From NCBI GenBank assembly GCA_044451405.1, contig JBIOKB010000014.1, positions 1-24,952 of the forward strand: DNA of 24,952 bases, in the 5' to 3' direction. The stretch comes from Candidatus Babeliales bacterium. Lineage in GTDB: Bacteria > Babelota > Babeliae > Babelales > Vermiphilaceae. Positions 1 through 20,149 of the stretch are shown piece after piece. The notes under the pieces were generated by a model. The model had not been told where the DNA came from. It saw nothing but the letters and a program-made list of their open reading frames with translations, and did no database searches. The stretch's first letter is position 1, and every line of letters starts with the position of its first letter. The position numbers and the translations under genes were made by a program.

Positions 1-1
1 A

Positions 2-322
2 TCCAATACTTGGTCTCTTACCTACCTCTTTTCCTATACCATTCCTGCTGCGTTAGTGTTACCGCGGAGTACTGATCGGATGTGCGAGGGGTTTTTGCCC
101 TTTGTGCCATGGTATGAGTCGGGGGCCATTTATTTCGTGGATTGTAGGGGCCTAGTTGAAGGTGGTTTAGGAATTTATTCCTATGATATAACTACCGGGG
201 TAACTTCGGAGATTATTAGGAATAGTACCTTATATTGTGCCCCCATGATAATAGGTAAAAACCTTATATATGGTGGGAAGTTACCTGAGATTTACGACTA
301 TTTTTCTTTTAAAGTCCTTTGA
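2..322 (+). CDS. 3' end of a hypothetical protein, truncated by the window edge; beta-rich, possibly propeller-like
   Basis: The frame of the 56..322 ORF is open back to position 2 (SNTWSLTYLFSYTIPAALVLPRS...FSFKVL*). Segments such as GAIYFVD and GIYSYDITTG resemble propeller blades. Confidence 0.6.
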   Translation, partial: SNTWSLTYLFSYTIPAALVLPRSTDRMCEGFLPFVPWYESGAIYFVDCRGLVEGGLGIYSYDITTGVTSEIIRNSTLYCAPMIIGKNLIYGGKLPEIYDYFSFKVL

Positions 323-365
323 ATTGATTGGTTGTTCCGTTATTTCGACTTCTTTTGGTTATTTG

Positions 366-393
366 TTTTAACATAATAGTCATTATCAGAATA
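366..393 (-). other. dif: dif-like XerC/XerD recombination site (probable chromosome dimer resolution site)
   Basis: The minus strand reads TATTCTGATAA-TGACTA-TTATGTTAAAA. This has 11-6-11 architecture, a XerD arm matching E. coli TTATGTTAAAT at 10/11, and a XerC arm ending ATAA. The site is intergenic. Confidence 0.85.
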
Positions 394-537
394 ATTTAAA
401 TTTATGCGTTTCTTTAGGGCTTTGTACCCTGTCCTCTACAAGCACAAGTCTCGACACCAATTAATACTCTATTTGAGTTTATAGAAAGATTCTGGTTTAT
501 AACCTGCTATTTTTATCTCTTTATTTCAAATCATGTA

Positions 538-588: not shown

Positions 589-607
589 ATGGAGTCTTTC
601 ATGATCT
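589..607 (+). repeat. 19-bp direct repeat, copy 1 (RBS + start codon block)
   Basis: ATGGAGTCTTTCATGATCT is identical to 1381-1399. Confidence 0.9.
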
Positions 608-1356
608 TAACCGTATTCCGGTCTCTTTTAGTTACCCTGGTCCTTGGCGTTCCCCTGCTTCATGCAAGCGAACAAGAATCAGAATTATTATTAGCCGTCG
701 ACAGAGGGAACCTTGTTATAGTTAAACAACTCTTGTCTCACGGAGTTAACCCTAGTTGCGCACTTATTACTTCAATTAGGTATCGCCATGGAGAATATAG
801 TTTCAATAGTCACCGTTATGCCATTATACAAGAACTTCTTGCCCACGGAGCCAATCCAAACATGCAAGATAATGAGGGGAATACAGCTCTTATAATTGCA
901 AGCGACATGTCAAAAATATCCCCTGAATATTTGGAAGTAGTAAAACTACTCCTGCATTACAAGGCAAATCCAAATATTCAAAACAATGAAGGAAATACAG
1001 CTCTTCTACGTGCCGTATACAGAAGTGATCGTTACAACTGCGATGTGGTTAAGTTGCTTCTTGAACATGGCGCTAATCCTCATATAAAAAATAATAAAAG
1101 AAAAACTGCCATTGACTATGTTACCTATACATATCGTAGCCCCGTAAAACATAAAATAAGTAGCTTTGGTGGAAATGTTGTTGGAGCAACAGCATCACTC
1201 TTTGCATGCGGTGTTCCACTGTGGGGGTTTGGTGATGATATGCATAGAAAAAGCACGAATTCTGAAGCAATAAAAAACAAGCGTACTATTCTCAAATTAC
1301 TCAAGAAACGTGGCGTGAAGCTTACTCGCTGGCAACAATTTACATGGAAAGTGTAA
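601..1356 (+). CDS. Ankyrin repeat protein with N-terminal signal peptide
   Basis: Repeated ankyrin motifs (LLAHGANPNMQDNEGNTALIIA, LLHYKANPNIQNNEGNTALLRA, LLEHGANPHIKNNKRKTAIDY) and a hydrophobic N-terminus ending LHA-S. GGAG at 591-594 favours ATG 601 over ATG 589. Confidence 0.92.
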   Translation: MILTVFRSLLVTLVLGVPLLHASEQESELLLAVDRGNLVIVKQLLSHGVNPSCALITSIRYRHGEYSFNSHRYAIIQELLAHGANPNMQDNEGNTALIIASDMSKISPEYLEVVKLLLHYKANPNIQNNEGNTALLRAVYRSDRYNCDVVKLLLEHGANPHIKNNKRKTAIDYVTYTYRSPVKHKISSFGGNVVGATASLFACGVPLWGFGDDMHRKSTNSEAIKNKRTILKLLKKRGVKLTRWQQFTWKV

Positions 1357-1685: not shown

Positions 1686-2171
1686 TTACCGGTTTACTAA
1701 CACCGGATTCTTCCACAAGCCACATAGCGTGACGGCAATAGCATCAGTCACATCAGCTTTATCCGGTGCATTAAGCTTTGGAAATAGCTGCAAAATAACA
1801 CGCGCTACTTGATCTTTACTCGCGCCACCAAATCCCGTAATTGATTGCTTAACCTGCATGGGTGTAAACTCATGCAGGTTTAATTTGTTTTTGTTTGCTA
1901 ATAAATACAGAATGCCGCGCAGGTAGCCAAGTTTTAAAAAGTTCTGCGCATTTTTGCCTAAAAACGGTGTTTCAAGCGCCAGATCAGTAATGCCATAGAC
2001 GGTAATTTTTTCTTGTATCGCATCATGAAATATCCCCACGCGATCAACTAAGCTCTGCGTTGGTGACATTTTTACGTACCCACAATCGAGCATGAATGTC
2101 CTATGCCCCTCTTTTTTTATAACTGCATAGCCTGCGAATCGAAACCCCGGATCTATGCCGAGAATTGTCAT
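1686..2171 (-). CDS. ruvC: Holliday junction resolvase RuvC
   Basis: ILGIDPG, LALETPF, VKQSITGFGGASKDQV and DVTDAIAV motifs; 161 aa. Confidence 0.97.
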   Translation of the reverse strand: MTILGIDPGFRFAGYAVIKKEGHRTFMLDCGYVKMSPTQSLVDRVGIFHDAIQEKITVYGITDLALETPFLGKNAQNFLKLGYLRGILYLLANKNKLNLHEFTPMQVKQSITGFGGASKDQVARVILQLFPKLNAPDKADVTDAIAVTLCGLWKNPVLVNR

Positions 2172-3865: not shown

Positions 3866-5251
3866 TTAATACTCGTGTACGTTTTGATCGACAAACTTAG
3901 TAAGCTCGCGCGCAAAGTTAAGAAACACCGTTCCGGTAGGTCCATTACGCTGTTTGCCGATAATGAGCTCAGCAAGCGCAGGATTTTCTGTTTCAGGGTT
4001 GTACATAACATCACGATATAAAAACATGATAAGATCTGCGTCCTGCTCAATAGCGCCTGATTCACGTAAATCAGAAAGCATTGGGCGTTTATCCATGCGG
4101 CTATCAACAGCACGTGAAAGCTGTGAAAGTGCTATGATAGGAACCTCTAATTCTTTAGCAAGCGCTTTTAATGAACGGGAAATATCAGACACTTCTTGAT
4201 GTCTATTTTCATGTCTTCTGCTTGCATGAATAAGTTGTAAATAATCGATAACCAGCAATTGTAAATTGTGTTCTGCTTTGAGTTTACGCGCTTTAGCACG
4301 CAAATCCATCAAAGTAAGCATGGCAACATCATCAATAAAAATTTTCATCTCCGATAGTTGCGCTGCAGCACCAGTTAATGATACCCATTCTTGTGAGCTT
4401 AACGTTGCATTTCTAATATTATGATGTGCAATACCCGATTGAGATGATAATAAACGCAAACTTAATTGTTCAGCAGACATTTCAAGTGAAAACACACCAA
4501 CGCTCGCACCACTTTCTGCTGCATGGAGCGCCATACCAAGAGCAAGTGCTGTTTTACCCATTGAAGGACGCGCTGCAAGTACTACCAGATCGCCATTTTG
4601 AAATCCTGACGACATGAGATCTAATTTTTTAAATCCTGAAGGAATACCAGTAATACCCTTACTGCTACTTTTGATGTTGGATAACTGTTTAAATGTTTTT
4701 TTTAGCCAGATATTAAGCTGTACAAACGATTGATTGGTACGCTTATTAGCAATCTGAAAGATAGTTTTTTCTGCATTATCAAGTACCACATCAATGTGTT
4801 TATCATCTTGCGCATAGCAGCTGGTAATAATCCCTGCTGCTGAGGTAATCAATTCACGCAACACCGCTTTTTCTTTGATAATGCGCGCATGCTGTTCAAT
4901 AAGACCAATAGCGGGAATATCTTCTTGTAGTGAGAGTAAAAATACAACACCGCCAATAACTTCAAGCTGCCCGCGCTTTGCAAGTTCATCTTGTAAAGTG
5001 ACAACATCTACACGCTTGAATTCGTGCATGATATCAACTATTGCCTGATACACTATTTTATGCGAAATCGCATAAAAATCTTCTGCCGTCAAAAATTCTG
5101 CTACCTGTGATAGGCTCGCATCATTTAATAATAAAGCAGTTAAAACAGCGCGCTCAGCTTCCAAGTTTGCCGGTAGATTTTTGCCAACCGTTTTTTCCGT
5201 ATCACCGATAGTTGGTTTTACTAATCCCTGCCGCTTTCCTTCTATGTGCAT
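3866..5251 (-). CDS. dnaB: Replicative DNA helicase DnaB
   Basis: EAERAVL N-terminus, AARPSMGKT Walker A, VIDYLQL, SQLSR, DLRESGAIEQDAD and KQRNGPTG. No intein. Confidence 0.98.
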   Translation of the reverse strand: MHIEGKRQGLVKPTIGDTEKTVGKNLPANLEAERAVLTALLLNDASLSQVAEFLTAEDFYAISHKIVYQAIVDIMHEFKRVDVVTLQDELAKRGQLEVIGGVVFLLSLQEDIPAIGLIEQHARIIKEKAVLRELITSAAGIITSCYAQDDKHIDVVLDNAEKTIFQIANKRTNQSFVQLNIWLKKTFKQLSNIKSSSKGITGIPSGFKKLDLMSSGFQNGDLVVLAARPSMGKTALALGMALHAAESGASVGVFSLEMSAEQLSLRLLSSQSGIAHHNIRNATLSSQEWVSLTGAAAQLSEMKIFIDDVAMLTLMDLRAKARKLKAEHNLQLLVIDYLQLIHASRRHENRHQEVSDISRSLKALAKELEVPIIALSQLSRAVDSRMDKRPMLSDLRESGAIEQDADLIMFLYRDVMYNPETENPALAELIIGKQRNGPTGTVFLNFARELTKFVDQNVHEY

Positions 5252-17830: not shown

Positions 17831-18556
17831 GTGGAAACCATTGATGTATCAACTGCATATACACAGAATCTCCCAACAACATTAGACAAATCAGATCCAC
17901 TTGGTGATGGCATTAGTTCACTTGAATTAATACGCGCATCAGGCTCTGATGTTGATGTAGTAAATGCAGCGCGTGTTTCATATGGCAAGCATACCACTAC
18001 GTTAACAGAACGTGATCAAGCACTCATTAATTATTTAGTAGAACATTCACACACCAGCCCATTTGAACACAATCAACTCTCATTCCGCGTTAAATGTCCA
18101 CTCTATGTCGCACGCCAGTGGATGCGGCATCGCATGAATTCATATAACGAGATTAGTTACCGCTATGTTAAAGCTCCACTTGAATTTTATGTGCCCAACA
18201 AGTGGCGCTATCAGGATAAAAAAAATCGCCAAGGGTCGGTGGGCGAATTTGATAACGAACACTTTACTCAGCAGTACAAAGATACCATCGCTACGATCGT
18301 AAAAACCTATGAACAATTATTAGAAAACGATGTGTGTCGCGAATTGGCACGCGGGTTATTACCGCTATGTACCTACACTGAGTTTATTTATACGTGCAAT
18401 CTCCATTCACTCACCCATTTTTTAAAACTTCGCTTGCATCCTGGTGCGCAATATGAAATCAGACAATATGCATTAGGCTTACTCGAGCTCGCAACGCCAC
18501 ATTTTCCTGCTTCACTGAAAGCTTGGAAGAAATTCCACATGCCTGAAAATTTTTAA
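17831..18556 (+). CDS. thyX: Flavin-dependent thymidylate synthase
   Basis: AARVSY, HTSPFEH, RHRMNSYNEISYRY (ThyX motif), ELARGLLP and AQYEIR. GTG start with AAGGA RBS. Confidence 0.97.
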   Translation: METIDVSTAYTQNLPTTLDKSDPLGDGISSLELIRASGSDVDVVNAARVSYGKHTTTLTERDQALINYLVEHSHTSPFEHNQLSFRVKCPLYVARQWMRHRMNSYNEISYRYVKAPLEFYVPNKWRYQDKKNRQGSVGEFDNEHFTQQYKDTIATIVKTYEQLLENDVCRELARGLLPLCTYTEFIYTCNLHSLTHFLKLRLHPGAQYEIRQYALGLLELATPHFPASLKAWKKFHMPENF

Positions 18557-18593
18557 CATAACTAACATTATCAAGTGCATGTGCTCAAAAATT

Positions 18594-18640: not shown

Positions 18641-20149
18641 TTATTTATTCCAAGACATAATTAAATCTATAAACAGGCGAACGCCGGCGCCGGTGGCACC
18701 TTCAGGACGGTAAAATGGCAAATCAGGAACATCAAGCGCAGTCCCTGCAATATCAAGATGTGCCCATGGCGTATCACCAACAAAGCTTTGTAAAAAGAAC
18801 GCTGCCGTGATAGCTCCTGCGCGATATTTGCCACTGCCAATATTACATAAATCAGCTACATGGGATTTTACTGCTGCTTTATAATCATTATCAAACGGCA
18901 ACGGCCATACACGATCACCGGTGCGTTTACCGGATGCAATAATGCGTTCTGTAAGATCGTCATGCTGACTCATAAGCCCACTAAAAAATGGCCCGAGCGC
19001 ATGTGAGCAAGCACCGGTTAACGTTGCAATATCAATAATAACATCAGGCTTATAATGTTTTACTGCATACGAAAGTGCATCAGCCAAAATGAGGCGCCCT
19101 TCCGCATCAGTATTTTTAACTTCTGCTGTTTTACCATTATAAAAGGTTACGATATCACCCGGCTTGGTTGCTTTACCACTCGGTAAATTTTCAGCCATTG
19201 GCGCAAGTGCTATTACATTCACCTGCGGTTTTAATTGGGCAAGTGCACGCATCACGCTAATAACCGCAGCAGCACCGGACATATCATCTTTCATAGCTTC
19301 CATATTTGCAGCAGGCTTAATACTAATACCACCAGAATCAAAGGTGATCCCTTTACCCACAATAGCAATCGTTGGCGCTTTGGGTTTTTCTGTATGATAT
19401 TCAAGAATCGCTAAGCGACATTCTTCATCTGAACCACGGGAAACCCCTGCTAATCCACCCATACCCATTTGGGTTACTTCTTGTTCATTAAATACGGTAA
19501 CTTTAAGGCCATTTTTACGAGCAATTTCAACGGCATGATCTGCTAAAATGGTTGGCGTCATACCGCGCGGTGGCATATCAATCCAATGGCGTGCATCATT
19601 CACCGCATCAGCAATAATCGTACCTTCATCAACACCAGCTTGAAGCTCTGCTTCACCTTTACCGAGTAAAAACACTTCTGTTACATGCTTTTTCTTAGCT
19701 TCTTTATCGGTAATAAATTCATCAAACGTGTACGCTGCTAAGCGCAGGGCAATGGTTGTTTCTTTTGCTACATCGCTGGTTAACAAACCAAGCACAGAAT
19801 CATCAGGAAGATGTAAGGCAATATGGGCGCAGCGCAATGATTCAGCGGTACGGGCAATGCGGGCTACGGCGCGGCGATACTGTTCAACATCAATTAACCC
19901 ATCACTCGTTCGTTTTCCTAACCCCACCATAACCAGCTGTACTACTTTACCATTATGCATCGCAGGCAACGTAAAAACACTCTGCGCTTTTCCCGTAAAA
20001 TCACGGGTTTTAATATACGTGCGCACATCAACAAAGAGTGGCGACATACGCTCAAGTTCTGCAGGTAATGGCGCGTCTTGTTCTACAACAAAGGCTATAC
20101 ATTCAGGATTATGCTCAAGGGCATATTTAGAGCTTACTAACAATAACAT
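18641..20149 (-). CDS. pepA: Leucyl aminopeptidase (M17)
   Basis: VGKGITFDSGG, MKDDMSGAA, NTDAEGRL, DIATLTGA and WAHLDIAG. Confidence 0.96.
   Translation of the reverse strand: MLLLVSSKYALEHNPECIAFVVEQDAPLPAELERMSPLFVDVRTYIKTRDFTGKAQSVFTLPAMHNGKVVQLVMVGLGKRTSDGLIDVEQYRRAVARIARTAESLRCAHIALHLPDDSVLGLLTSDVAKETTIALRLAAYTFDEFITDKEAKKKHVTEVFLLGKGEAELQAGVDEGTIIADAVNDARHWIDMPPRGMTPTILADHAVEIARKNGLKVTVFNEQEVTQMGMGGLAGVSRGSDEECRLAILEYHTEKPKAPTIAIVGKGITFDSGGISIKPAANMEAMKDDMSGAAAVISVMRALAQLKPQVNVIALAPMAENLPSGKATKPGDIVTFYNGKTAEVKNTDAEGRLILADALSYAVKHYKPDVIIDIATLTGACSHALGPFFSGLMSQHDDLTERIIASGKRTGDRVWPLPFDNDYKAAVKSHVADLCNIGSGKYRAGAITAAFFLQSFVGDTPWAHLDIAGTALDVPDLPFYRPEGATGAGVRLFIDLIMSWNK

Follow-up and report, generated by a model that had tools for sequence, protein, structure and literature searches.

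The 28-bp sequence at positions 366-393 of the window, on the minus strand, can be assigned with high confidence as the dif site on the chromosome of an uncultured bacterium of the Babeliales (Dependentiae/TM6), where it would serve dimer resolution of the XerC/XerD/FtsK type. The window is the whole stretch of DNA analysed (24,952 nucleotides) and corresponds to one entire contig (C14) of an assembly of 1,023,543 bases in 89 contigs. The assignment is based on the motif, its uniqueness, a concerted switch of GC skew, octamer polarity and gene orientation, a gene complement that includes all three protein partners, and the conservation of both site and neighbourhood in related genomes. A dif-like 28-mer had been reported here in the initial annotation; its sequence and coordinates were found to be exact, with a single match in the window. 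Two readings had been proposed for it. The first makes it the chromosomal dif of a lineage that has received little study and is sustained by the skew switch, the octamer flip, the uniqueness and the conserved site type and neighbourhood. The second, in which it is the att junction of an element that exploits Xer, is weighed below and was abandoned. The coordinates of the features are collected in Table 1.

Table 1. Features of the dif region, its protein partners and dnaA of related genomes (window positions unless a contig or genome is named).
Feature	Position	Strand	Remark
dif site, 28 bp	366..393	-	exact, unique; matrix score 35.3 bits; on the cumulative GC-skew maximum of joined C9+C14
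Presumed XerD-binding arm TTATGTTAAAA	366..376	-	10/11 bases equal to the E. coli arm TTATGTTAAAT
Central region TGACTA	377..382	-	T1, G2, T5 and A6 kept in relatives
Presumed XerC-binding arm TATTCTGATAA	383..393	-	by position and analogy to E. coli dif
Overlap with the 3' end of C9 (C9:29119-29460)	1..291	+	puts C9 to the left of the window
Gene of unknown function, 3' end, last before dif	2..322	+	begins on C9 (L039:18814); frame continuous
Ankyrin-repeat protein gene, first beyond dif	589..1356	+	Ank_2, 1.3e-25
ruvC	1686..2171	-	RuvC, 8.1e-35; syntenic neighbour of dif in relatives
dnaB	3866..5251	-	DnaB_C, 6.2e-106; syntenic neighbour of dif in relatives
Weak dif-like motif GCACTTGATAA-TGTTAG-TTATGTTAAAA	18551..18578	-	17.2 bits
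XerD-like recombinase, 296 aa	C9:24785-25675		NCBIfam XerD best, 299.8 bits
XerC-like recombinase, 307 aa	C54:1284-2207	-	NCBIfam XerC best, 277.2 bits
FtsK with gamma domain, 564-aa open frame	C50		FtsK_gamma 75.4 bits, cut-off 30.6
dnaA in relatives	G013:C1:335784, G002:C1:219585, G024:C1:715931, G034:C1:370367, G039:C1:488458		

On the minus strand the site reads TATTCTGATAA-TGACTA-TTATGTTAAAA (TTTTAACATAATAGTCATTATCAGAATA on the plus strand), in other words two 11-bp arms around a 6-bp centre (11-6-11 layout) with an inner partial palindrome, ATAA/TTAT. It is intergenic, the preceding stop codon at 322 being 44 nt before it and the start of the ankyrin gene (589) about 195 nt away. The window contains the 28-mer a single time; no match appeared in 100 dinucleotide-preserving shuffles, even when up to three mismatches were allowed. 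In the whole genome, no other 28-mer was found within seven substitutions of the site. A weight matrix was then derived from 20 dif sites of other genomes, the window site being left out, and both strands of the 1.02-Mb genome were scanned: the site obtained 35.3 bits and was followed by matches of 17.2, 13.6, 11.4 bits and lower. The site is single-copy in the genome, with the reserve that the assembly is estimated to be 95.7% complete and that a copy in unassembled DNA is possible.

A chance AT-rich and palindrome-like sequence with no function would be the simplest competing explanation. The genome contains 60% A+T, and looser patterns do match by chance: a search with a reversed pattern gave 10 matches in 63 genomes of the family, and one of the weaker matches in this genome falls inside a coding frame. 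Against this explanation, which we regard as extremely improbable, stand the absence of any match in the shuffled sequences, the gap of 18 bits to the next match, the position at the skew switch and the syntenic conservation in 20 loci of other genera.

Compared by eye with E. coli dif, whose sequence is quoted in PMC3025954, the whole site has 20 of 28 equal bases, of which the presumed XerC arm contributes 6 out of 11. Beyond the near-identical XerD arm, the E. coli XerC/XerD-dif-FtsK system shares with the present one the 28-bp 11-6-11 organization, the ATAA/TTAT inner palindrome, two recombinase paralogues and the FtsK gamma domain. The two sites differ in the outer part of the XerC arm, pyrimidine-rich here (TTCTG) and GCGC in E. 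coli, and in the centre (TGACTA versus TGTATA). The XerC arm also resembles that of B. subtilis dif, the target of CodV/RipX (ACTTCCTAGAA, with a T-T-C-Y core), and that of the predicted dif of Frankia alni (...GCCGATAA), as both are given in PMC3025954, although these organisms belong to another phylum and their sites have another centre. Among the 20 sites of relatives, position 5 of the XerC arm is C in 17 and position 7 is G in 18, and the ATAA is invariant; in the XerD arm, positions 1-6 and 8-9 are invariant. An XerD-arm variant, TTATGTAAA, occurs in nine of these 20 sites and is identical to the B. subtilis arm core (PMC3025954). The column counts of the 20 sites, read by eye, give the lineage consensus nnnyCYGATAA-TGnnTA-TTATGTWAAAA.

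The central hexamer had been described as non-canonical. This is correct only by comparison with the TGTATA of E. coli and does not hold within the lineage, where 16 different central hexamers were counted among the 20 sites and where TGACTA itself was found again at the locus L076. The conserved hexamer columns are T1 (18/20), G2 (18/20), T5 (16/20) and A6 (20/20), positions 3 and 4 being free. Three reference dif centres already differ from each other (TGTATA, TATATA and TGCACA, as listed in Kono et al. 2011, PMC3025954). Since hexamers vary both in the lineage and among reference sites, TGACTA is unremarkable.

A skew inversion had also been announced at the site. Within the window this part of the claim has only 365 nt to rely on, because the contig is no longer than the window and ends 366 nt from the site; the switch is therefore not visible inside it. 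It became testable, and then clear, once contig C9 had been joined through an overlap. The opening 99 nt of C14 are found again at C9:29119, close to the 3' end of this 29,460-base contig. Alignment of the two contigs showed identity over C14 1-124 and again over 225-291, the second block reaching the final base of C9, whereas the sequence between the two blocks diverges. Measured by piece, the identity is 96% for C14 1-150 and 100% for 225-291. The join thus consists of one 291-nt overlap, interrupted where about 100-150 nt diverge. Public sequencing runs contained a share of 0.14 or less of the sampled words, and the contigs built from them were 151-nt pieces at a depth of about 2, of which none covered window positions 1-450. 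In addition, arithmetic on the coordinates indicates that an open reading frame begun on C9 (L039:18814) runs in phase into C14 2-322. The overlap and the in-phase reading frame across it place C9 before C14.

The gene that spans the join matched no Pfam family; its homologues ('Hyp395') stand directly before dif in 15 of the 41 loci of relatives. The version carried by C9 is also open to its end, with a length of 395 aa. Its C-terminal part was observed in two forms, at window positions 125-224 and at C9:29243-29393 (L039 ~19783-19933), which diverge from each other between identical flanks and whose lengths differ by about 51 nt with the frame preserved. From their sequences, we read these forms as alleles of a single gene that coexist in the population sampled; they would have broken the assembly at this point, and dif itself would not be the cause.

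The contigs of the assembly are strongly skewed, by about +/-0.09, and the overall values were +0.099 for C9 and -0.086 for C14. The earlier hand count of bases 1-360 (about 84 G against 63 C) was reproduced exactly (84 G, 63 C, skew +0.143), and the excess of C over G reported to the right of the site was recovered as a skew of -0.089 over bases 394-24952. A value of +0.143 was reached by only 0.4% of 484 windows of 365 nt taken in the rest of the contig. In 2-kb windows along the joined C9+C14 sequence (C14 coordinates), the skew was +0.06 to +0.17 up to position -3118, close to zero from -3117 to +882, and -0.04 to -0.13 thereafter. The cumulative GC skew of the joined contigs switches at the site, its maximum being a plateau from -2420 to +435 within which dif is located. 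With a width of about 2.9 kb, this plateau is too broad for skew by itself to fix the position of dif. No internal plus-to-minus skew maximum with an amplitude above 100 was detected in the contigs of at least 8 kb. The location at a GC-skew shift point is in agreement with that reported for the dif sites of 641 strains (Kono et al. 2011, PMC3025954).

The polarity of oriented octamers was analysed with a set learned on 53 other contigs. The 100 most leading-strand-biased octamers were distributed 83:39 (forward:reverse) on C9 and 41:78 on C14 from 394 to the end, so that their polarity flips across the junction, a signal that is not independent of the base skew. Their cumulative maximum is situated about 3.7 kb to the right of dif, which makes this a coarse signal. 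A pooled set was used, as no single KOPS-like octamer stood out among the candidates, the top ones having 22-46 copies and a strand bias of 85-93%. Gene orientation, as read from the lists of open reading frames, changes in the same region: 15 of the 21 plausible genes of the window are on the minus strand, and over the final 20 kb of C9 the plus strand carries 18 of 21. The genes consequently converge on dif, and the earlier remark that most housekeeping genes point toward the site was accurate.

Two genes encoding a Phage_integrase domain were found in the genome (155.5 and 147.9 bits). The XerD-like protein remains under the equivalog cut-off of 329.6 bits and is over that of the subfamily NF001399. 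The XerC-like protein is barely nearer to XerC than to XerD (270.2 bits for the latter) and is below the equivalog cut-offs. For both recombinases the closest solved structure is that of E. coli XerD (1a0p), not XerH. The third partner, an FtsK with its gamma domain, is also encoded.

In E. coli, strand-polarised motifs guide FtsK to the synapse at the septum and sequential strand exchanges resolve the dimers. By analogy, the left arm TATTCTGATAA would be the target of XerC and the right arm TTATGTTAAAA that of XerD. Sister chromosomes become joined as a dimer after an odd number of crossovers; septal FtsK, on which the reaction presumably depends, would move the DNA toward the terminus until it meets the XerCD-dif synapse, and its gamma domain would activate XerD. 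The dimer would then be resolved by two pairs of strand exchanges spanning the central 6 bp (TGACTA), in an order of cleavage assumed to follow that of E. coli.

The conservation of the site was studied in Dependentiae/Babeliales genomes, in which 41 loci were found with the XerD protein. A site was present 3.3-7.9 kb downstream of xerD in 20 of these 41 loci, with scores of 23.7-38.1 bits that are partly circular because the sites of the matrix had first been picked by a 14/16 match to the core of the window dif. When only the loci with at least 6 kb of downstream flank are counted, the proportion becomes 20/30. The orientation is the same as in the window for 19 of the 20 sites, and none was found upstream of xerD. 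In the xerD loci lacking a site, the best score did not exceed 14.4 bits.

A simple pattern, GATAA-N6-TTATGTTAAA, was present in 12 of the 40 relatives searched, and the flanking skew was determined at ten such sites. A clear plus-to-minus switch was obtained at six of them (G023, G002, G013, G007, G024 and G022) and a weak one at two (G034 and G039). No switch accompanied the matches of G010 and G028, which have aberrant centres and are probably due to chance. In the closed chromosomes G013 and G024, each sampled by 22 stretches of about 20 kb, there is one global plus-to-minus switch and it coincides exactly with the site. The search for copies gave a site that is unique in this genome, of a type that is conserved and located at the skew switch in relatives. 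The strict core ATAA-N6-TTATGTTAAA was detected in 17 of 62 other genomes of the family, to be read against the ten matches of the reversed-pattern control. This limited number, together with the nine sites carrying the TTATGTAAA variant, indicates that not every member of the family has this exact XerD arm.

The gene order around the site is also shared across genera. The common arrangement is proS-xerD-dnaN-recF-(hyp)-dif-ruvC-(degP)-dnaB, with dnaN next after xerD in 37 of the 41 loci and proS before xerD in 38. In the 13 loci where ruvC is in range, dif stands between recF, or a hypothetical gene, and ruvC. One locus, L073, has a different order: the hyp-dif-ruvC block, dif included, is inverted relative to xerD, and dnaN-recF now lies upstream, on the opposite strand. 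The pattern suggests that the terminus region was rearranged and that dif was carried along.

In the present genome xerD is located about 3.8 kb from dif, a proximity which, like the 3.3-7.9 kb of the 20 relatives, distinguishes this lineage from classical systems. In the latter, the xer genes are described as distant from dif (Le Bourgeois et al. 2007, PMC1914069) and xerD as mostly near the origin (Kono et al., PMC3025954), according to the parts of these papers that deal with the question. The linkage of a recombinase gene to its site, conserved in a clade, recalls the XerS/difSL module of streptococci and the XerH/difH module of Helicobacter, as these are presented in PMC1914069 and PMC3325230. 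In contrast with these single-recombinase modules, two recombinases of the XerC/D type and a classical 28-mer are found here, and xerD does not abut dif but is parted from it by dnaN, recF and one further gene.

The best of the remaining matrix matches in the genome, the weak motif at 18551-18578, overlaps the end of thyX (last codon and stop), and a hairpin follows it in the interval between the convergent genes thyX and pepA. It departs from the invariant central A6 and from the conserved C5 of the arm. The 10-mer TTATGTTAAA has four copies in the genome, two of which are preceded by GATAA six bases upstream. We consider this motif to be probably a chance match or a decayed pseudo-site, outside the working system.

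It is with this motif that the proposal of an att junction has to be judged. The sequence at 366-393 would then be the attL or attR junction of a Xer-exploiting integrative element (IMEX), and its partner either the motif at 18551-18578 or a copy that disappeared where the contig breaks. The second motif has an identical XerD arm and the GATAA, it is 18.2 kb away in direct orientation, and its 17.2 bits exceed all the background, both in this genome (at most 13.6) and in the loci of relatives (at most 14.4). Moreover, the assembly breaks 366 nt from dif, and in G030 the site is likewise at two contig ends. The content of the 18 kb between the two motifs is, on the other hand, that of a bacterial core chromosome: ruvC, a gene for a DegP-like trypsin-like protease, dnaB, rplI (L9), ileS, murD (Mur ligase), ftsW (FtsW/RodA) and thyX. 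Genes for an integrase or of phage or plasmid type are absent from it. The dif-proximal part of this stretch, in the succession dif-ruvC-(degP)-dnaB, is syntenic in relatives. The second motif, for its part, overlaps the thyX stop and lacks A6 and C5, and its centre, TGTTAG, was found in no other family genome searched. Two in-frame alleles account for the contig break, which removes the need for an insertion at dif, and no further dif-like half-site was detected within 29 kb to the left of dif. Because the sole second dif-like site encloses core housekeeping genes, an element junction is a very unlikely explanation and the proposal was dropped.

One may also suppose that 366-393 is the true dif and that 18551-18578 is a second functional Xer target, either a dock for mobile elements or the relic of a former terminus. 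Its perfect XerD arm with GATAA at the right spacing, a combination found in two of the four genomic TTATGTTAAA copies, could be understood in this way. The score of 17.2 bits is nevertheless below the range of 23.7-38.1 bits of the 20 sites in relatives, and the motif is away from any skew switch and was not seen in other family genomes. A mismatch between the centres of two Xer sites would hinder complete strand exchange, and the centre of this motif differs from that of dif at four of six positions. There is very little likelihood of a second working target. A further candidate, 'site 3' at C3:28230-28257, was discarded as a chance match, as it scored 9.7 bits and is embedded in a coding frame within prophage-like DNA. 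This region (C3 ~24000-33000; L042 4000-12700) has matches to a terminase large subunit, a phage replication initiator and a RusA-like resolvase, and a minus-to-plus skew minimum, at C3:26443, adjoins it.

Elsewhere in the genome, ten DnaA boxes (at most one mismatch to TTATCCACA) are grouped within 244 nt at C22:10765-11008, at the skew minimum of that contig (10675). This cluster is likely to be oriC. The dnaA gene is on another contig, C11, and is found 34-62 kb from dif in the five closed or near-closed relatives, five out of five. With dnaN-recF and dnaB next to dif, it makes up a grouping of replication genes near the terminus in Babeliales. An origin near dnaA, at about 50 kb from dif, had been suggested by a minus-to-plus switch on C11 situated 12 kb from dnaA. 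It was rejected because in G013 and G024 dnaA is terminus-proximal, shows no local skew switch and is far from the single, distant origin defined by skew, and because the DnaA boxes of the present genome are on C22. The switch itself, at C11 ~23600, is not associated with a DnaA-box cluster and could reflect a rearrangement or foreign DNA.

Taken as a whole, the site is very probably a classical XerCD-dif site, a routine element whose report is new for this lineage, a relative of amoeba parasites that has a small genome and has been little studied. The literature searched on Dependentiae revealed no dif site of the phylum, and xer genes are named only in a list in the accessible part of PMC6561590. 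The immediate use of the site is to fix the replication terminus of a fragmented assembly, in which it orders C9 and C14 and orients both replichores; the lineage consensus can likewise locate the terminus in other Dependentiae genomes. Beyond that, the system is a textbook one, and only the conserved neighbourhood (xerD, dnaN, recF, ruvC and dnaB, with dnaA nearby) might interest specialists.

For this neighbourhood, a more ambitious proposal can be formulated, which we hold to be doubtful: dif would be the hub of a conserved, terminus-proximal cluster of replication and recombination genes in Babeliales, and this placement would have been selected. If so, the dosage of the initiator, clamp, helicase, XerD and RuvC would be tied to the completion of replication, and xerD-dif would constitute a loosely cis-linked module inside a classical two-recombinase system. 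Such a dosage link could matter for parasites growing into large replication bodies before division, as such parasites are described in the part of PMC6561590 devoted to them.

Two minor observations concern the assemblies of this group. In G030, the same dif with identical flanks was found at the ends of two contigs (G030:C1:318-338 and G030:C2:17-37; L006 and L016), and the assemblies of Babeliales seem prone to break beside dif. Furthermore, L076 and several other loci are labelled as Pseudomonadota or as gammaproteobacterial species despite a proS-xerD-dnaN-recF-dif order typical of Babeliales, and these are likely to be mislabelled bins.
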